DNA of 63,986 bases, filler included, from Reclinomonas americana ATCC 50394 (GCA_048213135.1; 8 parts of 8 records of this genome joined end to end with filler, not necessarily neighbours in it); one strand, 5' to 3'. Shown: positions 1 through 62,953, counted from the first letter of the whole stretch. Program-made: numbers and translations. The notes: a model not told the origin generated them from the sequence alone.

Positions 1-278
1 ACGAGAGTGTCACTATCCGGACACATTGTCATCATCAACTCATCTCACATGCACACACACACAAACCGATACATGGTCACTCCGCCGACCACCGTGGACT
101 CCTCGGCGGCCACTCCGCGCACTTGCGGGCGCCACTGCAGCCACGAGTGCTCTCCTCCTCCATCGAAGAGGACGCAGGTGAAAAGGGCCACGGAGAGCAG
201 AATGAGAAACAGTGTGCGATGTCGATGTCGACGTCGCGGCGGTCTACATTGCGCTGTGTAAACCGCCAGCGGTCGCAT
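1..278 (-). CDS. 5' end (exon 1, signal peptide) of a tandem paralog of the adjacent LRR receptor gene; runs off the window
   Basis: ATG at 278. MRPLAVY...LFLILLSVALFTCVLFDGG...GVTMYR matches exon 1 of the gene starting at 10443 (MRPHRALLVTLVSVALACSVLFDGG...GVTMYR). The intron donor (CG|GTTTGT at 66) is at the same codon position. Confidence 0.7.
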
Positions 279-496
279 TGCGTGGCTTGTGCGCTGTGTG
301 CCTCTTTCGTTGTTGTGGCGCGAAGTGTGTGTCGCAGTCGTCCATCATCTTCATCACTTTAATTAAAGACCAACGCCACCACCATCGTCGCCACGGTCAT
401 CGCGTCGTTTCACAAACGCCAATGTCACTGTCGCACAGTGGATGAGTGAGAGAATGAGAGAGAGAAGCAGACATGAATAACACACAAGTGGTGCAG

Positions 497-3400
497 TTAC
501 AAACCGTGCTCTGGTGGCGGTTCCTCGTCGCCGTCGTCCTCCTCATCCTCCCCATCGTCGTCGTCGTCGTTCAAATCGAACCCGGCGGCAGCCGTGGTGG
601 CTGGCCGCCGTTTCGCGGCCTCCTGCTCCGCGGCTCCCTGCCGTGCGCCAGTGGCAGACACGGAGGGACGACGCGCCTGCGTGGACGGCGTGGTGGCGCG
701 TCCCGACGGTTGTCGTGACAGCTGCAGGTCGGACGAGCTGGCGACCGAGGCCGTACGTTGGAGCGACGATGCCGTTGGCCGTGCCGCGTGCGGCGCAGGA
801 GGCGGCGGCGGCGCGGCTGGTCTGGGTGGTGGTTGTGGTGCAGGAGGCGTCGGTTTGGCCGGTTGCCGAGTGAATTTCCGAGCGACCTTGCCACCGGCAG
901 CCGTCTCCCGACTCGGAGGCCGCCGCTGTGATGGCTGCATGGCAGATGCTGGCGGTGGGGGAGGCACGGTCGTGGTGGTGGTGGTCGTCGTCACGGATGG
1001 CGGCGACAGCAGTGGCTGGCGGGCCGAGGGCGATCTCGCAGTGTCCGGCGACGAAGGTGACTCAGGCAGCAGATCGGCACCGTATCGCTCTGTTGGTGGC
1101 TCGGCGTTGCGGAAGGTGCCAATGTCGGTAGCAGTAAGTGGTGCCGCCGCCGTGCCGGGACGCGAGGTCGGGAAGCTCGAACGATTGGTGAACGAGCCGT
1201 CGCGCATGGAGGTATGTGGATTGCGGTCGGTGCGCATGCCATGCTCATCCTCCGCCTCCTCCATGAGCATTTCGGGGTGCGTGACTTCCACAATACGCTG
1301 TGCGCGTGATGAGTCGGAAAGGGTGAGCGAGTAAGTGCGAGGGCGACAGAAACGGGGAGTGCGCCCACCTTCCAGTTCTGGGAGATGAGACGGGCTTTTG
1401 TTCGTCTCTCCAACTCGGCAGTCTCCGCCGTATTCTCTGTGTGTGACAGCAATGCCACTTCTGCGGCATGACGACGAGCAGCTGCACTCGAGCAACACAG
1501 CCGTAGATGAACAGCAGTGCGCGTTTGCAGCAGTGTGCCACGGCATGCACTCACCGATCTGTGCCTGCAGTCGTGCATTCAGCAGCAGCTCGCGTACTTG
1601 ATACTGATCCTCGTCGCCCGTCAGACGAAGCTGCACACTGGCGTCGACGTCGCGCAGGGCCGGTGGCTCTGGCACGTCATCAAACGCCACTTCCTCCTCG
1701 AATGTGAGCTCACTGCGCTTGTCTGCGGATCTGGCCGACACGTGGGAGCGAGCCGAGCGCTGTCCTGGTGGCACCGCTGTGCCCAGGGAAGCTGTGCATG
1801 TCGATTGAGTGAGATTCACGTGGCTCTCTCTCTGTGTGTAAAAAGGACTACTCAACTGTGCACGTAATCCAGCTCGTCCTGCATGTGCGTGCGTGTGTGA
1901 GTGGCAAGGCAGAAGCAACAGCAGCAACCACATGATCGACTGTGCAGTACAGACCTTTTTCACATACAGCCGCGCCCGAGCCGCGAATCCAGCCGAGATG
2001 AGGTGGGCCAGCAGATAAACAAAGAGCAACAAAACAATAATGTACACGAGAGCCACAATCCACCAGCGCTCGCAGGGACCGCCAGCGGGACCCATGTAGC
2101 CTGCAGATAGGATACACGCAAGCTGTGAGAATACTGCAGGGTGCCATGGTGACCATCAAGCGTCTCACCAAAATTGCACTGGCACAACGAGCGGGAGATA
2201 CCGGCAGCCTGTTCCGAACCAGTATTCTGCGGACAGCTGGTGCACACACGGGCGCCATATATCTCCGAGTACGAATCACGCGGACACTCGTTGCAGAACT
2301 TGGCCGTGCCCTGCATCTCTCACTTCTCTTGAGGAGGGAACAAGCGCGGAGTATCGCGCACACTCGTGACACGAAACATTGGATCGGAATCCGGGCGGGC
2401 ACGGATCACAGTTGACCGTGCCAAAGTACTGTGCGTACAGACCAGCAGCGCACGCCAGGCAGATGGGCGCCGCTGGGGTGCTCATGTTGTAGCCAGGCGG
2501 ACACAGCTTGCAGCTCGGCATGCCGATCTCGTCCTGGTAGTGGCCGGGCGGACACTTGCGGCATTTCCTAAACGGGTACGAGTGAGCGATTTTTGCAAGC
2601 AAGCAGTGAGCAACGCATTGACGCAACGTCGACAGTGTGTTGGGTTGGTAGTAGCCCTTGGGGCACTTGGTGCATGTGGTGGCGGTGAGACTCTCGGCAA
2701 CAGTGCCCTTGGGACAGCCGAGACACGGCGATGTGTACTTGACAATGATGTATCCGGCAGGGCAGCCTGCAAGTGCACCGCTTACGTGTGATGCATCCGC
2801 TGACTCTCTCCACTCTACAACTGCACGCAACTGCAGGAAATGGTCGGATTGGTTGAATTGTAAGAGTTCACGGGGCAGTCAAAGTCATTGCCAGTCACAT
2901 CGACTGTGTAGCTGACATCGGCGAAGAACGCAGGCACGTCGTCCTCGAAACGATTGCGTGACAGATTTCTGGCACACCACCCACCATACGTGAGTCAAAT
3001 GCAACATGTCGGCAGTGGCACAGCAGCAGCACGCAACAGATACGTCAGCTGCTTCAGTTGGCCAATCTCGTTCGGAATAAGACCGGTGAAATCATTGTCG
3101 GAGAGATCACTGCGTCCATGACTGCTGTTAGTTGCCTAAAAAGACAGCGACAACCGCATCAATACAACGCACAGGTACCACAGCGGAACGATGGAACCGA
3201 TGGACTTCGGAACACTGCCACGCATCGAGTTATTGCGACAGTCCCTGATTGGAGCGACACAATATCAGTGGCTCAATGACGATATGGTTGCAGTGCAATA
3301 TTCACGTGCACGCTCACCACCAACGGAGACGACGCAGGACTGCTAAATCGGTTGGCAACTCGCCTTCGATTGGATTGCGGGCGGTGTTGCTACAGAGTGC

Positions 3401-6400
3401 GAAGCGTGAGAGGCCTCATTTGGAGAGAGAGAATAGTGAACGGTGCGCAACAGATAGACGACTTGATCGAATGCAGAGCTGAAGGCTCGACTGGATACCG
3501 CATGCCGCAAACCACGGGCGCGCTCTGCTGTTCCAAATGACGCTGAGCGCGCTTCAAACCGCGGATCTGATTCACCGCCACCATGATCGTCCGACACTGC
3601 CGGCGGCGCAGTCGCCGATTTGGTCTTCTTGGTCGAGCCGGAGAGCAAGTCGAGTTTGTTGCCGGCCACATTTCTGCTCGCACTTATGAGTGCCCAACCA
3701 GAAGCATAGACGGAGGGGCATCCTCGGCGCAACATGTACAATGCTCCGCGCAGATTGCTGTACTGCGGAAACTCGCCCGTCAAGGCGTTGTTTTGCAAGT
3801 CACTGTGTGCATGAGAGAAGAGTGAATGGCTGGCGACAACCAACCTCCTACCAAGCTTGCTGACGCACAGATACAGCATCTTGGGGGCGGCGACGGCTGG
3901 TAGTTGACCCGTGAACCCGAGACCAGGAGCAGAGCTGCCAGGTGCAACATGAATTTGCATGAATGAAGAAGGGACGAGGGCGAGCGACATCACAGTGGCG
4001 CAACAATTCCACAAGCGAAGGAGACACAATGTTGGTGATGCCACCAGTGACCTTGATCTTCGACATTACTCTGTACGAAAAGTCAGTGCACACCAGGGTA
4101 CAAGGGAAGATGCTCGCAAAAAACGAAACAAGTGCGCCAAGCTCGTCAGGCTTTGAAAGGCTGCCGGCAGTCCAGTATTCATCTTTGGCATGTTGTTCAA
4201 CAGTCTGCAGAGGTGAATTGTCTCCAAACAATGAGTATTACGGGAGACAGGAGCTGTGCTCCTGACTCGCAACGCAACAGCACACGCAGTGACCGGAGTG
4301 AACTGATTTCCGCAGGAAATGAACCGCTCAGTTGCGTCGACGACGGGTTCCTGTGTGCAGAGGTGGTGTGTGTATCGGCAAGGAACACCATCGTGTGTGC
4401 TCGCAAAGCAGTACTCACCAGTAGCGCAGGCGAGTAAACATCTTCACTGCTGGATTGATTGCACCATCCATGGACGAGCTTTGCATGTGCCTGGTCACTA
4501 GCATGTGAGTTGCAAGCAATGTGCAGCAGGGAATAGGGGAGAGAATCACGCAACAGCTCGATCAGCGAGGTAAGATTCTGCCACGGCTTGAAGTTGCCAG
4601 TGAGCGACAGGCCGCTGACGTCGAGATACTCGAGGCCCGACGACACGTCAATGGGAAACATGGCACCTCGCAACCGTGTGCCTCCAATGTCACTGAGGGC
4701 GGACTGTAAGTATGTGTGTCGTCAACACTGAGCACGCATCGGCAGCACGCAACAAGTGCTCCAGTTTGCGGAACTGCGACAGCACTGGTGAAAAGGATGT
4801 GTCACGCAGGCCGACCAGATCGCTGCGTATCGTGGGTGAGTGGAGTGGCAGCGTGGTTGGATGGGGAGAGGAGGACAAGCGCAACATGTAAGTGAGGCCC
4901 ACAGCCGACTCGAGCTGCGTGATGGAGGCCAGAGGATTGTTGCGCAAGTCCCTGTGCGCACACTCACGTGTTAGTTGCAGAATGACAATCACTCTCGCGC
5001 GTGAGCGCACGCAACAGTTCCACCAAGCTGCCGGCACGTCCGGCCTGCACAAACGACGTGATTTTGTTGTTCTTCAACAGGAAAAACTGCAGCGAGCTGC
5101 CGACTGGTGACATGTCCGGCAGGTCGCCGGCTAAGGAGTTGTCGCTGACATCGCTGTGTCGAGGGAAGTGAGAAAGGAGACAGTTGTGAGCGCACACACT
5201 CTCCTGGCTCTCACGCAACAGGTGACGAATGAACGGGACATTGGCCAAACTGGGGAAGTTGCCGGAGAAAGAGTTGCTGCAAGCCACACTGTAAAAAACA
5301 GAAAGTTGGTCCGGTGCAAGAAAGGGGAGCTCGATTCGTCACCGACGAAACATCATAGTGCATGACACTGGCAGCGCAGCTGAGGTGATGGAACCAGAGA
5401 ATTGGTTATCGTGAATGAGTCTGCATTGGACAAAACAGATGAGGCAGGGTGGGGTCAATGAGGAGGCTGGAGCACTGCGCACAGAGTTTGCAGCTGATCG
5501 AGTGCTGACAACGATGGCATCGCGCCCGACAACTGGTTCTCGTGGAGGGTTCTGCGAGTGCGTATCAGTGAAGCATGGGGGAATACAAATAATCAACAAC
5601 AGTGAATGAATGAGTGGAAGCACTCAACAATGTTTTCAGTCCAAGCAGGCGTCGAATGGTGGTTGGCAGGGATCCACTGAAGCGGTTCTTGCCGAGTCCT
5701 CTGTGCGCGCAACACGTTTAGCATCACGATGGCGTCAAGCGCTGCCACAGAAGCCAGTTCACTCACAGGTACTGGATGCTGAGAACGGTTCGTAATGGAA
5801 ACGTTGGCAGTCCGCCACTCAGCGCATTTGCCTCGAGATATCTGCTCAGTAGCAGTGGTGAGTTGATGATGCGCGAGTATGTGCGTGTGTGAGTGCAACG
5901 CAACAGATTGGCAACACTTTTAAACGACAACACTTCGACAGGGAAACCTCCAGTGAACCGATTGCGAGTGATGGCACTGTGCGAAGAGAGGGGAGTGAGA
6001 ATTCACAACGACGGGGCGACAACCACACAAAACGCAACAGTTCACGCAAATCCGGACTTGTTGCAAACGACGGCAGAGCACTGGTCAGCATGTTGCCCAC
6101 GGCGCGGCTGTGCCACCGCCAGAAGTGAGGCAAATCAGTGAATGATTGGCACTGTACAGTGAGTGCTACATGACGCAACAAAATGCGCAAGCTCGGATGC
6201 TGGAACGTCTTGTCGCGCTCCCATGTGATTGCGCCCACAAAGTCATTGTGCGACAGGTCGCTGTGCAAGTGGAGGGTGAGGGCGGAAAGGGCGACCGAGT
6301 GATGGAGAATAGACGCCGACTCAACATGTACATAGCCGCATTGAGGTTGCTCAAGTCGGGCACGACGCCAGTAAGGCGATTGTAGGCCACACTCCTGTGA

Positions 6401-9400
6401 CAAGCGATTAGGTTCTTCTCCCGAACCCTCCGCACGTGCACCAAGGGAACGAAACAAGAAGCGAACGAGTCTGAGCTGCCCGAGGGCTGCGGGCATTGAT
6501 CCACTGAAGAGATTGCGCTCGAAGTTTCTGCGAACACCCTCAACGTCAACACAACACTCTCTGTCGGGATGCGGTGCCGACAACGCAACATATGAACGGA
6601 ATTGATGTTGTATGTTGTGGGCAAGGTGCCGGTGAACTTGTTATACCGCAATGATCTGCAACAATAAAAAGCAATATGAGATGGGAGACAGAGAGGAAAC
6701 TAGCTGCTGCAGTGGCGGAACGCAACATGTATTCGATTCGCCCAAGCGAAGATGGCAGGGTGCCACTTATAAAGTTGGCATCCAAGTCACTGCGTGCAGA
6801 GTGTTGTGAGAGACGAGTGGAGTGTTCTAATCTCCTCGGCAGCACGCAACACGTAGATGAGTGCCGGCAGCGCCCAAAATGCTAGCGCTGGTGCCACTGT
6901 GAGCTGATTGAAGCGTGCATCTCTGTAGATGTACAGAGTGAGTGCATGCGCATGTGTGCATTGCTGTAGCAGCATGTTCATGCGCAACAAATACGTCAGT
7001 TGTGTCCACGTGCTCATATCCGGTAAGCCGCCGGTGAAGGAGTTTAGCGACACGTCGCTGCAGCGGGCACCACCACTCGAAAATGAGTACCCTCCTTCAC
7101 CACAAGAGTGCCATGACGAATTCAGCACGACGCAACAGTGCCCGCATTTTGGTCAACGAGCTCATGGATGAAGGTAACGCACCAGTCAGTCCGGTATTGC
7201 TCACATTGCTGTGGCAAAGCACAAAAAAGTGTGGTGAGAGGGGAGGGCAATGGCACGACTCGCCACCTCCCATATGCTGCGCAACAGATACTGCAATGCG
7301 GCCAGTTGACCAATGGCACTCGGCAGTGTTGTGGCCGGGTGAGTGCCACCGAGTGGACTTTCAATCAACTTGATCTGTTCGAGAGACAACACCTCCAGCT
7401 TTTGCAAACGCGACCATTGCACACTGAAGTAACTGGATAGGCCAGTGCGCGACACGTTGCTGACGTATGACCGACCACCCATCGAATGAAGAAGTGAAAA
7501 TGGAGGAAGCGGACTGAGGGAAGCATGCGTACGCAACACGAATTTGAGTGACAGCGAGTTGTAGATCTGAACTGGGATGTCGCCGGTGATGAGCGGGTTG
7601 CCGCCGAGTTTTCTGTGATTGGTGGCGCGGTGAGCAGCAGTGTGGTGAGGTGAGCAAGGCGACAGTGGTTCACACGCGCACAGATACTCAATCGTCTGCG
7701 ATCCGGGATAGTCGTTGATGAGACCGGAAAAACTGTTCTCCGACAAGTCTCTGCACGGAAACATTGATCAGCACATACAGAGGTCCCTCTCTACTCCTCA
7801 AGTGGAGAGACGTGCACTCAACATATGCGTCAGCAGGGGGATGCGAAACAGCAGGCCCGGTATTTTGCCAGTGAGTCGATTGCGTTGCAGTTTTCTGTGC
7901 CACTCGCCAGTAAGAATGCATGTGCATGACCAGCAGCACTCACGCCTTCGCGCAACAGCACGAGGAGGTCCGGCAGTTTGGTGTACAACCACACGGGCAC
8001 GGTGTCGACAAACTGATTCCAGCTCAAATCTCTGCGCTCAAACGAGTGATCATGAGGCTGGCGCGATGAGGGCGACAACGCGCGAGATGCACGCAACAAG
8101 TACTGCAGTGTGGTGATGTTCTGTAAGGCCGGTGGCAGAGGTCCGCTCAGTCGATTGCGACCCAAGTCTCTGCAGTTGCGTGCGCGGTGAGTTGTTTGTG
8201 AGAGAAAACTGGAGCTCGTCACAGCGGACTGACGCACAGGTACTCCAGTTGTATTCCGATCTGCTGAAAGAAGATGGGCTTGATGTAGGACGTAGGCGTG
8301 GAGCCGACCATCTTGATGGAGGAGGTGAAAGAGTTGCCACCCAGAGCTCTGCGTTCGTGATCGAGTGTGAGTGGCAGCCGCGAGCGATGTTTGGTGAGGT
8401 GAGCGCACGCAACAAATGCGTGAGATTCACGGCTGGTTTCACTCCCGCCGTCAACTCGCCCGACAGGAGGTTGTTGGAGAGGTCACTGTGCGAGTTGGAA
8501 AAGTAAGCAGCAAATAGAGAGAGATGCGGAGGAGAAGGTCTGTGAACGCAACATGTGGTTGCAAAACTCGTATATCTGGTAAGGCACGTCACCGTAAAAG
8601 AGGTTGTCGCGCAAGTTGCTGCGTGAGATACATGATGCCTCGGTGAGGTACTGTGTGTCAAGCGTGGGTGGGATGAACGAAACAGTCGAATGAGGCCATT
8701 CATGTCGCGCAGTGCATTGGGTAACCGGCAGTCAATGTTGTTGTCCGGCAGGTCTCTGCGTCGTCGGTGGCACGAGTGAGGTGACGTGACGTGAGGGAAA
8801 CGGACTGGCCATGACGCAACAGGTGAGTGACAAAGCCAGTCTTGTTGCATGTGACGCCCTCCCACTGGCATGGTTTCTGCACACAGACGTTCAGTGATCT
8901 CGAAGTAGAGAGCGAGAGAGAGTCTTCGTGCTCATACCCTGCCAACTTGCATCCACCCATTGTGTCGTTTCCATCGATCACCGCGACAGTTGATGTACAT
9001 GTCCTGCAGCAAGTTACCTGCATGCCGTCGTCAATAGAATGCACGTGACGTCTCCAAGAAACCCGCAGGAAGCAACGCAACAATCGTAGTCACGGATGCC
9101 CTTGTTGGGGTCGACGCAGATGAAAGCCGAGACGCGCAAATCCACCGTGATCTCGAAACTGGCGCCCGTGTGGCCATACATGCCCACAATGTGACGGCCG
9201 GTGGCGTGGTACGGATCGTCGTTCAACACGATCAGTTGCTCGCAGCCGTACGCGCGTGACTTGAAGCGACACTTGGTCTGATTGACGCACGCCGTCGGGT
9301 GCATCACATTCGCGACGGTCTCCACCTCGGGGAACGCGTCGACCATGATGTAGATGTCGGGGTCGCCGTACAGGCCGGCGTTGGTGGTGCCGTTGCACCT

Positions 9401-9748
9401 GGAAAAGGAAGAAGGGAAGATCAACGAAAGGGAGGAAGGACCACAGAAAGGGAAAGTGTGCACGAGAGAGAGAGAGGAGAGGAGTGTAAGTTGGCGAGCT
9501 CCGAGCCTCTTCTTTTCTTGAGCTCCGTGGACGTGCGCGAGTTACAAGTTCGAAAGCGTGCAAGAGAGATACCGTAAGCGGCTTCCTCTTCTTCTCTTTC
9601 TCCTTCTATCTCCGCACACCGTAGGCTATCATTTGTTTTCCTTGTGCTCAGTTGCAAGTGCGAGAGAGTGCAAGGAGAGGGGGAGTGGAAGTTACAGTGG
9701 GCTACGAGCTTCTTCTTTCCTTGCGCTTCGTGCAGTGCGGGAGTGTGC

Positions 9749-9787
<39 letters not shown>

Positions 9788-10443
9788 ATGCTTCTTTCTC
9801 CTTTTTCTCTTTGTGATTCTCTGCGTTCCACTCTGTTGGACTTATTGTTTTCCTTGTGCTGCTAGAGAGTGCAACGCGCGCGCGCGCGCGAGAGAGGAGG
9901 ATACTGGTGGGTTTCGAGCTTCTTCTTCTCTTCCTTGTGGTCGATGTGCTCCATGTGCAAGTGTGGGAGTTGGCAACAAAACAGAGAAACCACAAGCGAG
10001 CGGCTTCTCCTTCTCCTTCATCTTCTCGCCTCGCATACCGTGTTACTCTGCCTTACACTGTGTAGGCTACCGTGCCTCATTCCGATATACGAGTGGGAGA
10101 AGACGGAAAGACTCATTACACTCACCTGGTGGTCAGCGTGATATCGATAAACGTATCGGTGACATCAAAGTACCAGAACTGCCAGCCGGCCTCATTGACG
10201 CTGCCATTCTTCCACAAGTCGGGTTCAACTCTGCGTTACCGGACACATCGTCATTCGTCGTCATCATCATCCGTGGCAAGGAAAAGAAGCAGAGCACACA
10301 CGCCTGTACATGGTCACACCCTGAAACGTGGTGCTGTCCTGCGCCGAGACGCGCTGCACGAGCCACCACCCTCCATCGAAAAGCACACTACACGCGAGCG
10401 CCACGCTCACCAGCGTCACCAGCAACGCCCGATGCGGTCGCAT
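497..10443 (-). CDS. Large multi-exon single-pass receptor-like protein: signal peptide, beta-sandwich (PPC-like) domain, LRR N-cap, ~35-40 plant-type LRRs, Cys-rich TNFR/ephrin-receptor-like repeats, TM helix, Pro/Ser-rich and acidic cytoplasmic tail
   Basis: Spliced exons read WQFWYFDV..ITLT..GDPDIYI..IVGMYG..SFEITV, then cap PCQWEGVTC, then repeats such as DLSNNLLSGELT, DLGRNRLSGPLPPAL, KLQRNRLTGKIP and DLDANFISGTLPSSLG. CPxG motifs follow (CTKCPKGYYQ, CRKCPPGHYQ, CKLCPPGY; ~2120-2790), then hydrophobic WWIVALVYIIVLLLFVYLLAHLI (~1995-2065). Stop TAA at 497. Confidence 0.85.
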
Positions 10444-10628
10444 GCGACACACACACGCACACACAAAGGGCGAAGAACAATGTGCGAGCGCGAATGAATG
10501 ACAGAGTGTGTGTGATGTGAGAATGGAAGAAACGCATTAATGGCGGGAAACCGCGCGAGCATTGGCCATGGTGCGTTTAGTCTCTCATACTCAGCGAGAG
10601 TAAGAGAAAGGGTGCGTGTGTGTGTGCG
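10444..10628. promoter_or_regulatory. Putative 185-bp bidirectional promoter between the LRR receptor and CFAP54
   Basis: Divergent ATGs at 10443 (-) and 10629 (+). Contains GGCGGGAAA (E2F-like, 10542-10550) and ATTGG (reverse CCAAT, 10561-10565); motif function is unverified. Confidence 0.45.
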
Positions 10629-11420
10629 ATGGAGGAGGAGTACGTGGAGAACTTCCAGTCGCGAGTGGTGGCATGTCTGACTCGATTTCGTTTGAGAAAT
10701 CAAGGTCAGCGCGTTTCCCGCTCACAGTCACTCTCACAGTCACTCACTCTCTTCCACTCATGCACACAGACTCCTCACGAAGACGAGCGACTGTTGATCG
10801 GTCAGCACTGCACTTCTCTCTCTTTCCTCTCTCACACACTCTCTTATCAATCATGTGATTTGCAGTCAATCGCTTGTTCAAGAACTGGAGGACTTGGTGG
10901 ATGGGCTTGCGGATGCGTGCGAGGTGGCGAACTTTGTGCGACGAGTGGTGGATACGGGCGAGTTGTTGGTGCGACATAAGGTGAGTGGAGGGGAAGGGGG
11001 AGATGCAAGATCAGTTGGTTATGCAGAGAGGGAGGGAGGGAGGGAGGGAGGGAGAGAGAGAGAGAGAGAGAGGAGGAGAGAGAGAGAGAGAGAGAGAGAG
11101 TAGAGAGAGAGAGAGAGAGAGAGAGAGACGAGAGAGAGAGAAGAAGACGAGAGAGAGAGACGTAGAGACGAAGAACGTAAGACGAACGAACACGACGAAC
11201 GTACGTACGACGTAGTACGTACNNNNNNNNNNNNNNNNNNNNNNNNNNNNNNNNNNNNNNNNNNNNTTAATTAATTAANNNNNNNNNNNNNNNNNNNNNN
11301 NNNNNNNNNNNNNNNNNNNNNNAACCGTAGGTAACGTAACGTAACGAACGGTAACGAAACGACGTAACGAACGTACGTACGTACGTACGTACGTACGTAC
11401 GTACGTACGTACGTACGTAC

Positions 11421-27693: not shown

Positions 27694-27865
27694 TGTGTGT
27701 GTGTGTGTNNNNNNNNNNNNNNNNNNNNNNNNNNNNNNNNNNNNNNNNNNNNTTAATTAATTAANNNNNNNNNNNNNNNNNNNNNNNNNNNNNNNNNNNN
27801 NNNNNNNNAGTATGGACGGAGTAGAGAAGAGTAGAGAGAGAGAGAGAGAGAGAGAAGACTGCGAC

Positions 27866-31489: not shown

Positions 31490-31897
31490 GAGTAGCTTAC
31501 GTACAGGCTTGCCATCGGAAGCAGCCTTCACACAATAGTCAGGCTGCGGTCTCGCGCGGTCGCTCGCTTGACGCGTAGCGACAGTGCGCCACTCGTGCTC
31601 AACGAAACTTCTCCTGCAGAACAGGAGTTGGGATAATGGAGCATTTCTGCAACTGCGTGTCAATGGACAGCGTCGTGAGTGAGAAGGATCCGTTTCTTGA
31701 CGTCAGTATCAACAAACACCAACAGGCTGTTCAGCAACACAGTTGCCATCNNNNNNNNNNNNNNNNNNNNNNNNNNNNNNNNNNNNNNNNNNNNTTAATT
31801 AATTAANNNNNNNNNNNNNNNNNNNNNNNNNNNNNNNNNNNNNNNNNNNNGTCAGATTCTGACCACTCGTGACAAGCATTCTCTCTCGCTCGGCCGT

Positions 31898-35483: not shown

Positions 35484-35813
35484 CCTGTCAGGGAAGAAGG
35501 GAGAAGGGAATGGGAATGGGAATGGGATGGGGAAAGAGGGGAAAGAGGGGGAAAAGAGGGGGNNNNNNNNNNNNNNNNNNNNNNNNNNNNNNNNNNNNNN
35601 NNNNNNTTAATTAATTAANNNNNNNNNNNNNNNNNNNNNNNNNNNNNNNNNNNNNNNNNNNNCACACACACTCACCTGTAAAGCGCCATTATGCGTGCAG
35701 TCTCACTCACTCACTTACACTCAACACACGCTCTCTCGCGTCGGAAGAACAATGAGAAAAAGTTGAGCATTCTATCACAGTCGACTGATACTCTCATACA
35801 CACTCACACTCAA

Positions 35814-46200: not shown

Positions 46201-48264
46201 TCCGAAGCCACCACCACGTGCGTTCTGTGGCGACACCCGAGGAGATGAGATGCAGGGAACGGCTTGGAGGGTACATCAAGGCAACGCAACGGTGTCATGG
46301 CCATGTAAATCGGCTCGACCTGAATGTACTTGGAGTCCATGGGGCTTCCGATGGCATTGCACAGGATGAGAATGTACCTGCGTGATGAACACGGGTAAGA
46401 AACTGCGCTCCACGAGGCAGACAAGAGACAGAAGCGCGCAACTCTCCGCTATTGTCGTCCGTCTTGGTGGCCAGGCAGCAGAAATCGCCGGCAGCGCGAA
46501 TGTCAATCAGCTTCTTCACGTACTTGATGTACTTTTCGTTCGTCTTTGTGTTCCAAAACACGACACACTGCTCCACGCGGTCGGGTTTGGTGTACGCATA
46601 CACCAGCGTCTGCGGCGAAACACAACGTGAGGAATGAGACCGCAAGAGATCAAGGACAGGTAGCGTATGCGGCCGACCTTGCCAAAGTAACCCCACTTGT
46701 AGTCGGGTCGCACATTGGCAAAGTAGATGAACGAGTCGACGGCGAGACACACGCGCAACCCGTTGCCCTCCCACGAGAGCCCGTTAAAGGTCGTGCCTGG
46801 CACACGCAGCGTGCGCAGGTGCTGACCGTAGGGCGAGTAGAACTGCACAATGTTGAAGTTCTTCTGCTCGCCGGTGCTGAGGCGCATGTTCTGTGATCCA
46901 GAAATCGCCAGCACGGTGCCTGAGGCATTCCAGCAGACATGCGTCGCTCGCATGTCGGTGATCAGAATGACAGGCTCTGCGAGGGAAAATCAGTGTCCGT
47001 GACGTCTAGAGAAAGTATGGCACGCCCGCAACTGTCGTCCAACTCGTGACGCATGAGTTGGCATCGACCATTCTCGTAAGCAATGGCCAACACGGGTGCG
47101 TCGGGGTCGGCGTAACCCTCGGCACCATCGTACCAGTCGATGCCCACGCAGAGTGAGCCGTCTGGCACATCCTCCAGTGCGTACACTGGCAGGCGGGCCT
47201 GCGCGCGGAAAGAGAGTGAGACGGCCGCACGATCGTTCATGGATGCAGGGGCAACGCAACAATCGATGTGCCCGAGACGCCATCATACATGAAGACGTCG
47301 CCGCTGACGGTGCCGAAGAGCAGCAACCGACCGTCGGGTGACCAGTCGACACGCGACAGGTTCAGCTTGGTCTCCTGACCCCACAGGCGATTGCCCTCCA
47401 CCGAACCGGAAATGACGGCACCTGCGACGACGATCACGATGATCACGCTGGGCATATGCGTGCACACAGCACACACAGTGACACACTCACCATCCTGGTA
47501 AATGATGCAGATCTTGCGGCCGTCGGGAGTCCACTTCATGTCGGTGACCACGCTCTTGTTGCGCGAGTTGATCATCTCCTCGTACCACGTGCCCTTGTGC
47601 AGCATCCACACAATGATCAGGCCCTGCTCGTCANNNNNNNNNNNNNNNNNNNNNNNNNNNNNNNNNNNNNNNNNNNNTTAATTAATTAANNNNNNNNNNN
47701 NNNNNNNNNNNNNNNNNNNNNNNNNNNNNNNNNGGAGGAGGAGGAGGAAGAGGAGGAGGAGGAAGGGCTTAGAGGCATGACGCACCCTTGTGACCCTCGA
47801 GGCTTTGATTCATGGTCAGCGTGGCGCCTGGATTCTTCTTCGAGTCACCGCTGTCCAGTTGCACAACCTTGAGCAGGTTGGCCTCGCCACCGCATGCAAT
47901 CCATCCATGATCGGCATTCCAGCTGATACAATGCAGCGGGATGTTGTTGGGAATGGCAATCTACACGAGAGAGCAAGAAGAGAAAACAAAATTGAGGTCA
48001 ACGACGCAACGCGCAAGAGCGATTTCGACTGTCTGCGTGTGTGTGCGTGTGTGAGAGAGGAGAGTGAAGGGTGACTGGCAGTGCACACGCAGACGCAAGG
48101 GCACAGACACACAGCGCAAGGTGCGAGCGTGGGTTTTCGCGCCATGTCCAAACCGCCTTTAACGCCCGCTCTCTCTTGCTCACACGCAAACACACACATG
48201 TGCCAGTGGTGCGCATACACAGACACATAGACACACAGACCTTCTTTGCCAAGTAGACAAACAT
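43231..48264 (-). CDS. WDR35: WD repeat protein 35 / IFT121 (IFT-A), spans the gap at 47634-47733
   Basis: [111 protein letters not shown]-terminal CPLCH. Confidence 0.95.
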
Positions 48265-57800: not shown

Positions 57801-60800
57801 TCGCGTTGTCCGAGTTCGAGCGCTTCAGCTTGCTGCGTTTCTTTCTCCGCTTCGACGACTTGCGCTCTTGCGAGATTGAGCTGCGACCGCCGTCGTCCTC
57901 TGCTCGCGCACACCCCACAAATGAGTGCGCAGGCGGACACAAGAATATCTCTCCACCACTTACACACCGTCAGTGGAAATGTGTTCCACCGCATGCACGG
58001 CAGCCAGCGGTCCCGAACCCGACGTGTCGCCCAGGTTCTCGAAGAGCAACAAGAACTCGGCAGGCGACAGCGGCACACGCCGCAGGTGCCAGGCAAGTTG
58101 CGCAAACCCATTCATCGCAGTGAACTTGGCCGAGAGCGGTGGCACCGACAGGAATCGATCGAGGATCTGCAAGTACACGTAGCGCATGCACGAGTTCGGG
58201 TTCTCGAGGAAGCGCAGCAGTTTGGAGAACGGCAAGATCTCGCCCTCGAGCATCTGCAGTGACTCGCGCCACTCGGGCGAGGAGATTTTCGCTGCACAGC
58301 CAGCACATTGAGATATGCAGAAAGCACACAAATAATCTCTCGGCATGGAGAAAACCACACGCACCGCGCAGCAACGTGGCCGTGGCCAGACCAACAGTGA
58401 GACATTGCGACACGGCGCCGCGCCAGTCGACACCCGATCGCAGTGCGTTGAATACCGCTGTGCGCAACGTTTTAAGATGCGTCGCGAAAGAGGTAATATG
58501 CAACAAATAGATGATACCTTGATGTGCAAATCGCGACGACTCGGTCTCAGACGATAGGCTGTGGAGGCAACTGCGTCAGATCCGTGGAATGGCACGAAAA
58601 CAGAAAATCGCGAAACAACATGCACGCAACAGCGAGTGGAGGGTGGTGAGAAATTGCACCAGCGGACGAGCATCGTCGACGTGCTCCACCAGCGGCTCAA
58701 TCACCATGCCAGCCTGCGGGACCAGTGACTGCGGCAACGCATGTCCCAGCGGAGTCGCGAATTCTCTGGACCGAGCACGATGCGCAGACGGATGTGGTGT
58801 CGCAGGTGCACCATCGGCAGCAGCCGTCGACGGCGTAGCGCCAGTGCCACCATTGACGTGCGGTACAGGCTGTGCAGTCAAAAAAATGAGAACTTACCGA
58901 CGACGGGCGCGAATAGTGTGCACACCACAACAACACACCTCGGCTTGCGACGGTCCACCGCGCTCGAATCGCGCTCGCTCAATCTCGCCAAAGGCCAACA
59001 TCAGCAGATTCAAAAAGTCACCCTCCCGGCACACGCGTCGAATGTCGGCGGCGTGTGCATGCTGCAGCCGGCGATAGCAGCACAAGTCAACATCACGAAC
59101 GATATTCTCTCGCAAAAACACACATACAGACACACGAAACATCAGTCAGCAAGTAGCGCAGGCACGCCAGCCACTGCGCCACCACATCGCTCGACGCCGA
59201 GCTCCACAGTCTGTAGTCGAGGAGCAGTATCCGCAGGCCGTCTGCGTCGCACAGCCGCCCATCCACCAACCAGCACGCCGATTGTGCCGTGCGCCCGTGT
59301 CCTGCACAACGACCATGAGCAACAACAACAACGAAAACACACAACAAAGAGGATACGCACCGCTCTGCTGCAGCGAGTATGCGTCGGGCTCCGCGCGTTG
59401 GAATTCAGCCTCCAGCGAGCGCGAGGTGGCTCCCAAGTACGACCGATCCAGTGACAGCAGCTGGTCCTCCTCGAAACCAACAAAGCGGAACGCAACACGC
59501 AACGCGGCAGCCGACAGGCAAAAGCTCGACCGTCGCAAGTGCAAATTGAGCCAGTCGAAGCCGTTCATGGTGCGGAACTCGACGTCACACATGGGCGAGA
59601 ATCGCACCAACGTGTACAGCAGATCGAGACAGTGCAGCTGCAAGTCGGGTTCGTCAACGCGCGCCAACAGCGCGAGAATCACTGGCGTGCCTCCCACGTG
59701 AGTCCACGTGCTCGCAATGCACGAGCGCTCCCCAGACACAATCTGCAACGTGAAAACCCACAGGTTGGTCAGTTGAGCTCCTCAAACAAAGAAACGTACC
59801 AAAGCCAACAACTTCGTCACTCACCTTGCCGCCGTGCATGGCAGGGACAGCGAAGAAATGCACATTCTGGAACGAGGCATTGGTGGAGACAGGCGACACC
59901 GGTGACGTCGCCGCTGAAGACGACGACAGAGCTGACATGGAGCCGGAGGAGGAGCCGGTCGAGTTGGACTTGTTGGTCAGNNNNNNNNNNNNNNNNNNNN
60001 NNNNNNNNNNNNNNNNNNNNNNNNTTAATTAATTAANNNNNNNNNNNNNNNNNNNNNNNNNNNNNNNNNNNNNNNNNNNNCCACCACCACCACCACCACC
60101 ACCTCCGCCGATACCACCGCCGGTGGTGGAGGTCAGCACCAGCGGAGTGTACGGTAATAGCTCGCGATAACAGGATGGAGCGTTGAACTCAGCCGCGTGT
60201 GCCGACAGCACGAGCGTACTGATCAAATCCGCAGGTAGTCTTGGTGCATGCAGCAACCGCAAATACTCCTTCAAGTCACGCGTCTGCACATCCAGTGCCA
60301 TGCACGAAACCAGTAATGACAAGACCAATGACCGCACGCACGCAAGAGGCGTATGAGGCGAGCCAGCCGGCATCACATTCCGCCGTAATGGAGACGACAG
60401 GGGACTCCTCGCATACGAGCCGGGAGACATGGGCGAATCCAGGTGCGCGAGCAGCATGGGAGACAACAGATCGGCATTGACAGACATGGAGGTGGAAACA
60501 GGAGACAGCGTGGTGGACTGGTCGGAGCGTGGCGTCGCCAGCTGTGGTGGTGCAGTCACGTGACCGTGACACGGCACATAGTGGTCGAAAAAATGTACAA
60601 AATTGGATTCCAGTTCCTCGCTCCTGCACGTTCGTGAGCAACACAATCACACACAGAAGGCGAGCCTCAAAAAAAAAAAGACGAACCACGAAGCGCTGAG
60701 CATCATCGATGCTTCGTCGTCCACTGGAGGCCACAGGTGCCCGCATGTCAGCTCAGGGCTGGCGTCGGCGAGCACCATCGACATTCGATGCAAAAGGCAC

Positions 60801-62853: not shown

Positions 62854-62953
62854 NNNNNNNNNNNNNNNNNNNNNNNNNNNNNNNNNNNNNNNNNNNNTTA
62901 ATTAATTAANNNNNNNNNNNNNNNNNNNNNNNNNNNNNNNNNNNNNNNNNNNN

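Follow-up and report, generated by a model that had tools for sequence, protein, structure and literature searches.

Leucine-rich repeat (LRR) genes in which each repeat sits on its own exon have already been reported from plants and brown algae, from Tetrahymena and from vertebrates, and the gene presented here is a further example of this layout. In plant LRR-kinase genes of the ERECTA/SERK/SYMRK type, rice 'group 5' included, exons of ca. 72 nt harbor one LRR each, sometimes two, and have between them phase-2 introns that interrupt xxLxLxx at its first Leu, a layout for which exon duplication is given as the accepted explanation (PMC3050792). The brown-algal (Ectocarpus, Saccharina) LRR-ROCO genes are described with 72-bp, phase-2, one-LRR exons that begin at GxxP, with several splice variants and with positive selection, the marks of shuffling reported for Ectocarpus being exons of identical length, inactivated or inverted LRR exons lying in introns, and recently duplicated loci (PMC3341825, PMC11378527); skipping of LRR exons in these genes is documented as well (PMC11378527). 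The Tetrahymena LRR genes, as portrayed in PMC6564038, number thousands, are young, display nucleotide-level similarity and clonal expansions, and use exons of exactly 90 bp, whose extreme phase-2 bias creates a 'junction' residue. Among vertebrates, the LH, FSH and TSH receptor genes show LRR exons of similar size and introns all in phase 2, a pattern interpreted as exon duplication (PMC11378527, citing Koo 1991), and human LRR gene families are reported to display strict exon modularity with some exon skipping, e.g. NLRP3 (PMC6642158). A previous sequence-only reading of this DNA had named the plant ERECTA-type kinases and the brown-algal ROCO genes as precedents, and both are indeed found in these sources (PMC3050792; PMC3341825, PMC11378527).

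The window, i.e. the whole stretch of 63,986 nucleotides that was analyzed, contains a real one-repeat-per-exon LRR array on its minus strand. The gene model was hand-curated from the output of a dynamic programme favoring chosen donor motifs, its splice junctions being predicted, and yields a whole predicted gene of 53 exons (497..10443, minus strand) that starts with an ATG at 10443, ends with a TAA at 499-497, and has a coding sequence of 5766 nt for 1921 amino acids with no internal stop. The LRR span read without splicing shows 28-46 stops per frame. All 52 introns are GT-AG except intron 1, which apparently reads GC-AG and for which a tandem paralog (see below) carries GT at the equivalent donor position.

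Exons 5-44 are each followed by a phase-2 intron, in an unbroken run of 40, and exons 6-44 (3038..8755, minus strand) are therefore 39 symmetric 2-2 exons, as had been claimed for all cassettes. Thirty-four of them are single-LRR exons of 63-81 nt, which agrees with the earlier statement that most LRRs lie on their own exon of ca. 66-75 nt; 14 measure exactly 72 nt, none measures 90 nt, and the remaining five (111, 174, 138, 138 and 222 nt) contain one irregular LRR or two LRRs, the range over the whole array being 63-222 nt. Array introns are 59-79 nt long (median 65.5) and successive unit starts lie 129-150 nt apart for 30 of the 39 units, close to the period of ca. 135-145 bp first noticed. 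With approximately 42 LRRs in exons 6-44 and the last one in exon 45, the total is ca. 43, slightly above the 35-40 initially counted. Concerning the position of the introns, said to interrupt the same Leu codon after its second base, the position holds in all 40 cases, the split codon always being that of the first hydrophobic residue of xxLxLxx, while the residue itself is Leu in only 25, the others being Ile (8), Phe (3), Val (2) and Trp (2). The junction offered as an example, CT/...CAG/A GAC CTG, corresponds to intron 5 (8820 to 8756). Were phases independent, forty introns would share one phase by chance with a probability of about (1/3)^40.

The predicted product shows the architecture of a receptor-like protein. 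Exon 1 (10304..10443, minus strand, as all that follow) contains the start codon and, as read from the sequence, a hydrophobic N-terminus resembling a signal peptide. Exons 2 and 3 (10230-10126 and 9398-9082), separated by a 727-nt intron, encode a putative PPC-like beta-sandwich N-domain: a phmmer search with the exon-3 translation retrieves PPC/UPF0669-array proteins (E 5e-10 to 1e-4) as well as the N-domains of the proteins P0005, P0006 and P0007, and the AlphaFold model of the homologue P0007 (mean pLDDT 65.7) gives a TM(target) of 0.64-0.69 to collagenase PPC and collagen-binding domains, with 0.67 for the PPC domain 5sv5. A Pfam scan of the N-domain exon itself showed no direct match to PPC (PF04151) or UPF0669 (PF17065). 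An LRRNT-like cap (..CRGDRW..KPCQWEGVTCN..) is translated from exons 4-5 (8821..9017) and aligns with that of P0017, the homologue discussed below. The array that follows has the consensus LxxLxLxxNx(F/L)(T/S)Gx(L/I)P, i.e. a plant-type 24-residue LRR, as derived position-wise from the 34 regular units; single exons are too short for significance in Pfam (LRR_1, E 0.006-0.11). Exon 45 (2832..2968) holds the last LRR and a Cys-containing C-terminal cap (DVTGNDFDCP...), is aligned to DLSQNIFGCPLP of P0017 and ends in phase 1, where the phase-2 run of the array stops. Exons 46-48 (2169..2766) encode Ephrin_rec_like (GCC2/GCC3-type, PF07699) cysteine-rich repeats, with three matches exceeding the gathering score (E 1.2e-5 at 2630-2764, 2.7e-12 at 2378-2566 and 2.5e-6 at 2170-2310). 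A single transmembrane (TM) helix of 23 hydrophobic residues, starting with WWIVAL, and a basic stop-transfer stretch are found in exon 49 (1955..2100), which falls opposite the TM region when P0017 is aligned. Exons 50-53 (497..1878) are tentatively assigned, on composition, to a low-complexity cytoplasmic tail of ca. 390 residues, rich in Ala, Pro, Arg, Thr and Ser and with an acidic end. The frame 2155..497 is open even unspliced, which leaves introns 49-52 uncertain; right after the TM helix, a KDEL[D/E] stretch is common with P0017 in the spliced version only. The tail was scanned against Pfam through exons 49 (1955-2098) and 51 (1556-1789), and in these two pieces no kinase or other domain matched at E<=1.

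One full-length homologue was found in the databases searched, namely P0017, a cDNA/transcript-derived protein of the jakobid Stygiella incarcerata (EukProt, TRINITY_DN28433_c0_g2; also P0006). Residues 58-1601 align with its residues 73-1621 in one colinear blastp HSP, with 26.7% identity and an E of 7e-145. The two proteins share the putative PPC-like N-domain, the LRRNT, the Cys cap, the Ephrin_rec_like repeats, the TM helix and the KDEL[D/E] stretch, as well as the order of the repeats and the length of the LRR region (1062 residues by the chosen boundaries); they differ in the tail, and the Stygiella protein is known from its transcript alone. In a global alignment with P0017, 38 of the 40 predicted junctions have no gap within +-2 residues. 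The junction residue lies opposite L, I, V, F, M or W in 34 of the 40 cases, against a background of 34%, and the predicted junctions are thereby supported independently. The best PDB matches of the homologue's LRRs are plant LRR-RLK ectodomains, GSO1 (E 1.9e-107), ERL1 and ERL2 among them.

The native order of the units scores 659 against P0017, whereas 300 random orders give a mean of 370 and a maximum of 480 (z 7.3), and permuting only the regular units of equal length still leaves the native order ahead (mean 412, maximum 524, z 6.0); in both tests the alignment was re-optimized for each permutation, which frees them of bias towards the native order. Since only 2 of the 39 exon peptides score best at their colinear position, orthology of single repeats is weak and colinearity rests on whole-array statistics. 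Concave x positions are 19.5% identical in register vs 9.4% for mismatched repeats, the native score being reached by none of 2000 permutations, and convex plus loop positions are 16.3% identical vs 7.1%; here positions were fixed by an alignment optimized for the native order, which somewhat favors the native value. Relative to these controls, concave-face positions are no less conserved than convex ones.

At the DNA level the repeats have drifted far apart, in accordance with the high divergence first noticed. The mean pairwise identity between exons is 0.563 for nucleotides (0.532 shuffled) and 0.256 for amino acids (0.194 shuffled), the highest exon-exon nucleotide identity is 0.68, near-identical exons are absent, and adjacent exons are no more similar than distant ones (0.563). 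Tandem Repeats Finder returned no array with the period of the unit, and no DNA-level repeat was detected. The introns are 0.583 identical to one another vs 0.517 when shuffled, an excess for which their common ends can account. The orphan LRR exons that might lie in introns or intergenic DNA were likewise not found: there are no LRR-like matches on the plus strand inside the gene and none in the 727-nt intron 2, the sole long intron, the array introns of 59-79 nt are too short for spare exons, and the other ca. 53 kb of the window gave six weak matches only (E 3-10), i.e. chance level.

Dscam-like regulated cassette splicing has conserved intronic docking or selector elements as its hallmark. 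Logos of the 40 LRR introns revealed no such extra element, only a generic 5' splice site, a branch-like CTNAY motif and CAG: GTTGCG stands exactly at the start of 25 of the 40, CAG at the 3' end of 39, and CTNAY occurs in 34, in most cases 16-31 nt before the 3' end. The non-LRR introns 3, 45 and 46 of this gene share their donor with the LRR introns.

The proposal of a receptor-like LRR ectodomain gene in a protist is upheld, the eukaryote being neither plant nor animal. Genes nearby are WDR35/IFT121-like, BEACH, M16 peptidase and TTI1, and the conserved M16 peptidase reaches a best identity of only 49% in the protein database. Approximately 220 nt downstream of the stop codon starts a tandem paralog, whose first exon (66..280, minus strand) is 51% identical by tblastn to residues 7-47 (E 9e-6) and which continues past the window edge, leaving its LRR exons outside. 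Its presence shows that this LRR receptor family is able to expand.

With plant receptors of the ERECTA, SERK and SYMRK/NORK type the gene shares the LxxLxLxxNxLxGxIP repeat, the codon position and phase of the introns, and the type-I topology; unlike them, it belongs to an organism that is not a plant and has a low-complexity tail where they have a kinase after the TM helix. No solved plant ectodomain is known to have as many LRRs as these ca. 43, and neither the putative PPC-like N-domain nor the Ephrin_rec_like stalk is known from plant receptors. The brown-algal ROCO 'type I' exons are alike in being symmetric phase-2 exons with one LRR each, in principle skippable and shufflable, but as described they are uniformly 72 nt, start elsewhere in the repeat, encode cytosolic ROC-COR GTPases instead of an LRR, Ephrin_rec_like and TM protein with a putative PPC-like domain, and are accompanied by inactivated or inverted copies. 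Tetrahymena offers, in its published description, a protist with tandem LRR exons and phase-2 bias, in contrast with which we find one gene with its tandem paralog, exons that vary in length, and exon identity near that of shuffled sequence. The vertebrate glycoprotein-hormone receptors and NLRs are reported to have similar LRR exon size, phase-2 introns and modularity, but their LRRs are of another class and far fewer, and their effector is a GPCR or NACHT. In lampreys, an incomplete VLR germline gene has banks of orphan LRR cassettes on its flanks; the present gene, in contrast, is complete, and its ca. 53 kb flank in the window revealed no orphan LRR segments.

The sequence-only reading had gone from this layout to a combinatorial or diversifying receptor, whose cassettes would be skipped, duplicated or swapped, through splicing or recent shuffling, to yield many prey or pathogen specificities. 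Any subset of the 39 symmetric exons could indeed be removed in frame, the splice variants described for Ectocarpus and Saccharina ROCO genes and the 90-bp arrays of Tetrahymena are precedents, and a tandem paralog is present. Of the shuffling marks known from Ectocarpus, none of those tested for was found, so the step from cassettes that could be skipped or swapped to a combinatorial system is not supported. No exons are near-identical, no repeat was detected in the DNA, exon length is not uniform, and orphan, inverted or inactivated exons were found neither in the gene nor in the window. Nearly all exons have splice sites of consensus strength, and across the whole LRR region the Stygiella gene's two Trinity isoforms agree, gap-free, at 1414 of 1417 residues. 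That reading had itself counted colinear order against its proposal, and it is colinear order, with repeat-specific residues kept, that the sole full-length homologue, distant as it is, displays; nor does the concave face stand out as the more variable one. Taken together, we regard a combinatorial receptor as very unlikely.

A different history, with the same function, would be that of an initially intron-poor array into which introns were inserted in parallel, at a proto-splice sequence recurring in every repeat, instead of being duplicated together with the exons. The introns are alike only in generic signals, the organism has many introns with a highly stereotyped donor, and the five exons exceeding one regular repeat could be boundaries that were never given introns. 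However, intron loss explains these exons equally well, old duplicated introns are expected to lose their similarity, and forty insertions at one codon position and in one phase need a highly specific preference, for which there is nothing in support; moreover, position and phase are the same in the plant LRR-kinases, for which exon duplication is presented as accepted (PMC3050792). Parallel gain is thus unlikely, albeit less so than the combinatorial reading. An over-fitted exon chain, or a decaying, unexpressed gene, is barely credible: the programme did favor chosen donor motifs and the tail exons are uncertain, but 5766 nt stay open over 52 introns, GT-AG save the first, the alignment with an expressed homologue runs the whole length of the product, TM helix and juxtamembrane motif included, and the junction residues fit the homologue's hydrophobic positions.

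The explanation we favor, and consider probable, is an ordinary gene, presumably spliced constitutively, that encodes a type-I membrane protein of very large size and of the LRR receptor-like or adhesion kind; the gene's layout would derive from old tandem duplication. The layout would be the remnant of how the array was built: a unit of one exon plus one intron, the latter lying in the codon for the first Leu in xxLxLxx, may long ago have undergone many tandem duplications, after which every repeat would have acquired its own identity while the order was retained. The ca. 43 LRRs would then form a single long solenoid on a cysteine-rich Ephrin_rec_like stalk, followed by a disordered, Pro-rich tail. 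A cell-surface location with a ligand or adhesion function for the concave face may be envisaged, and the tail might serve signalling or cytoskeletal coupling in place of a kinase.

Finally, the phase-2 intron in xxLxLxx may be that of the plant ERECTA/SERK-type genes by descent, with a minority of cassettes possibly still skipped, which would shorten the ectodomain. We hold this to be a minor possibility, as position, phase and LRR class are the same as in plants but do not by themselves separate common descent from convergence. If shared descent were true, the exon-per-repeat, plant-type LRR module would be older than the split between plants and this protist lineage, or would have moved between lineages.

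On the minus strand, the reverse complement of 9450..2700 shows short coding blocks alternating with ~65-nt introns that start with GTTGCG and end with CAG. The gene model was obtained by dynamic programming followed by hand curation, the splice junctions being predicted, and comprises 53 exons, starting with the ATG at position 10443 and stopping with the TAA at 499-497 (minus strand), with a CDS of 5766 nt that encodes 1921 aa with zero internal stops; left unspliced, the LRR span contains 28-46 stops depending on the frame. An unbroken series of 40 phase-2 introns (after exons 5 to 44) makes exons 6-44 an array of 39 symmetric 2-2 exons, 34 of which carry a single LRR in 63-81 nt, with a length of exactly 72 nt in 14 cases. 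The remaining five (111, 174, 138, 138 and 222 nt) hold either an irregular repeat or two repeats each, and LRRs total ~43. Array introns measure 59-79 nt, and the spacing between units falls within 129-150 nt for 30 of the 39. The split codon is always that of the first hydrophobic position of the xxLxLxx stretch, occupied by Leu in 25 cases, Ile in 8, Phe in 3, Val in 2 and Trp in 2 (n = 40). The sequence-only reading had described mostly one repeat per phase-2 exon, and this observation is correct, far beyond chance; small corrections are needed for the strand, for the number of repeats, given as about 35-40, and for the split residue, taken to be Leu throughout.

Concerning the splice signals, the LRR introns share only the GTTGCGT donor (exact GTTGCG in 25/40), a CTNAY motif (34/40), located mostly 16-31 nt from the intron 3' end, and the final CAG (39/40). 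Introns 3, 45 and 46, which lie outside the LRR region, carry the same GTTGCG donor, and the hexamer occurs 106 times across the window against 62.8 expected. These are general splice signals of the organism, not cassette-specific ones. The 5' splice-site consensus is GTTGCGT instead of the usual GTRAGT, from which an altered U1 snRNA 5' end would be predicted in R. americana. Intron 1 (window 10231-10303, minus) looks GC-AG, the exon ending in TACAG and the intron starting with GCGTGTG. A tandem paralog starts ~220 nt downstream of the stop codon (window 66-280, minus), its remainder lying beyond the window; it shows 51% identity with the studied protein over the N-terminal ~41-49 residues, and has GT where intron 1 has GC.

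The predicted protein begins with a signal-peptide-like segment (exon 1), followed by a domain (exons 2-3) that is without a direct match in Pfam and matches proteins composed of PPC/UPF0669 arrays. The AlphaFold model of P0007, a homologous fragment, is a beta-sandwich (mean pLDDT 65.7, core 70-90) that aligns to collagenase PPC and collagen-binding domains with TM(target) of 0.64-0.69. An LRRNT-like cap (exons 4-5) precedes the repeats, whose consensus over 34 regular units is LxxLxLxxNx(F/L)(T/S)Gx(L/I)P. The best PDB matches of the LRRs of the homologue are plant LRR-RLK ectodomains, namely GSO1 (1.9e-107), then FLS2, PEPR1, ERL1/2 and BRI1. Beyond the array lie Ephrin_rec_like repeats (exons 46-48, E down to 2.7e-12), one TM helix (exon 49), and a ~390-aa tail where Ala, Pro, Arg, Thr and Ser are abundant and no kinase was found. 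The tail exons are tentative, and the four tail introns uncertain, because one frame of window 2155..497 (minus) is also open for 552 codons without splicing, and a tail with one large last exon is possible; a KDEL[D/E] stretch following the TM helix, which P0017 has as well, favours the spliced version. Overall, an LRR receptor-like or adhesion protein fits the gene best.

Relatives are scarce. Searching 1.84 billion representative proteins with the exon-3 translation (105 aa, phmmer) gave 15 matches, among them P0006, a transcript-derived protein assigned by EukProt to Stygiella incarcerata, of which P0017 is a longer isoform. In that database the architecture of a PPC-like domain, ~43 LRRs, an Ephrin_rec_like stalk and a TM helix has one full-length relative and two fragments. 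No longer homologous protein was found among 26 candidates with the N-domain exon as query, residues 60-250 of P0017 recovered only their own cluster among 356 candidates, and scanning metagenome contigs with the N-domain alignment gave 95 pattern matches, of which tblastn confirmed 0. Querying the ESM Atlas with P0017 returned generic LRR clusters only, the best (0.93) being an uncharacterised LRR fragment cluster, and none of the papers brought up by a literature search on the combination deals with it, as judged by title or abstract start. By these searches, the domain combination appears almost without database relatives.

The full-length homologue provides support for the junctions. The spliced product aligns to P0017 in a single HSP (residues 58-1601 vs 73-1621, 26.7% identity, E 7e-145), and in a global alignment no gap falls within two residues of 38 of the 40 junctions, with 34/40 junction residues opposite L/I/V/F/M/W vs a background of 34%. 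It also allows the order of the repeats to be assessed. Assigning positional orthology to single repeats by best hit was discarded, the colinear position ranking first for just 2 of 39 exon peptides, and the whole array was permuted instead. When the 39 units were permuted and realigned to the LRR region of the homologue (300 permutations), scores had a mean of 370 (sd 39.5, maximum 480), against 659 for the native order (z 7.3). With permutation confined to the 34 regular units z is 6.6, and with permutation confined to equal-length classes it is 6.0 (mean 412, maximum 524). Repeat-specific residues are likewise conserved: identity at the concave x positions is 19.5% in register vs 9.4% for mismatched repeats, a native value reached by 0/2000 permutations, and at loop and convex positions 16.3% vs 7.1%. 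The colinearity signal belongs to the whole array and not to individual repeats.

A combinatorial system of skipped or swapped cassettes, as had been proposed for this array, is possible in principle, and arrays of this kind are known. Ectocarpus ROCO genes have exons of exactly 72 nt, inactivated or inverted LRR exons within introns, and recently duplicated loci (PMC3341825), brown-algal ROCO splice variants are reported to carry differing LRR sets (PMC11378527), and Tetrahymena exons measure exactly 90 bp, with nucleotide similarity kept among young copies (PMC6564038). All tests that could be run, however, oppose such a reading here. Tandem Repeats Finder detected no array with the period of the unit, exon nucleotide identity averages 0.563 vs 0.532 when shuffled (maximum 0.68), and adjacent array exons are no more similar than distant ones. 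Orphan LRR exons, which the combinatorial proposal suggested looking for, did not emerge: tblastn with the LRR region gave 0 matches on the opposite strand inside the gene and only 6, with E of 3-10, in the remainder of the window, and the sole long intron (intron 2, 727 nt, window 9399-10125) has neither an LRR motif nor LRR-like coding potential, presenting only short direct repeats spaced ~200-340 nt and microsatellites, (AG)n and (CG)n runs. The two Stygiella isoforms, P0006 and P0017, align gap-free through the LRR region with 1414/1417 identical positions, and differ only after it. With no DNA-level repeat in the array, no spare exons in the window and an order conserved with the homologue, the combinatorial proposal is not borne out.

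In gene structure, plant LRR-kinases whose LRR domains are rich in introns come closest (PMC3050792), with codon position and phase identical to those found here, whereas brown-algal type I exons start at GxxP and so differ in intron position (PMC3341825). With no kinase found, the gene is not an LRR-RLK, nor is it a ROCO.

The window itself consists of contigs strung together, several of them with microsatellites at their ends, (ACGT)n and (CT)n for instance; between them lie seven 100-nt spacers, each built as 44 N, TTAATTAATTAA, 44 N (11223-11322, 27709-27808, 31751-31850, 35563-35662, 47634-47733, 59981-60080 and 62854-62953). Rfam gives 0 matches in window 1-11222. Ordinary eukaryotic neighbours are a TTI1-like gene (36.5-39.2 kb, minus), a WDR35/IFT121-like gene (44.6-45.6 kb, minus), an M16 peptidase (MPP-beta-like, 49.8-50.6 kb, plus, best protein-database identity 49%) and a BEACH-domain gene (53.5-54.7 kb, minus). 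The WDR35/IFT121-like gene implies a flagellum.

The array is old, its repeats individually differentiated and their order conserved. Its cassette-like layout is most plausibly a remnant of ancient tandem exon duplication, the repeat order having become fixed afterwards. Exon cassettes are by themselves no sign of a combinatorial system. One LRR per symmetric phase-2 exon is an already known pattern, found here in a poorly sampled eukaryote, and since plant LRR-kinase genes have introns at the identical position, the locus is a data point on whether exon-per-LRR modules are ancient or have arisen repeatedly.
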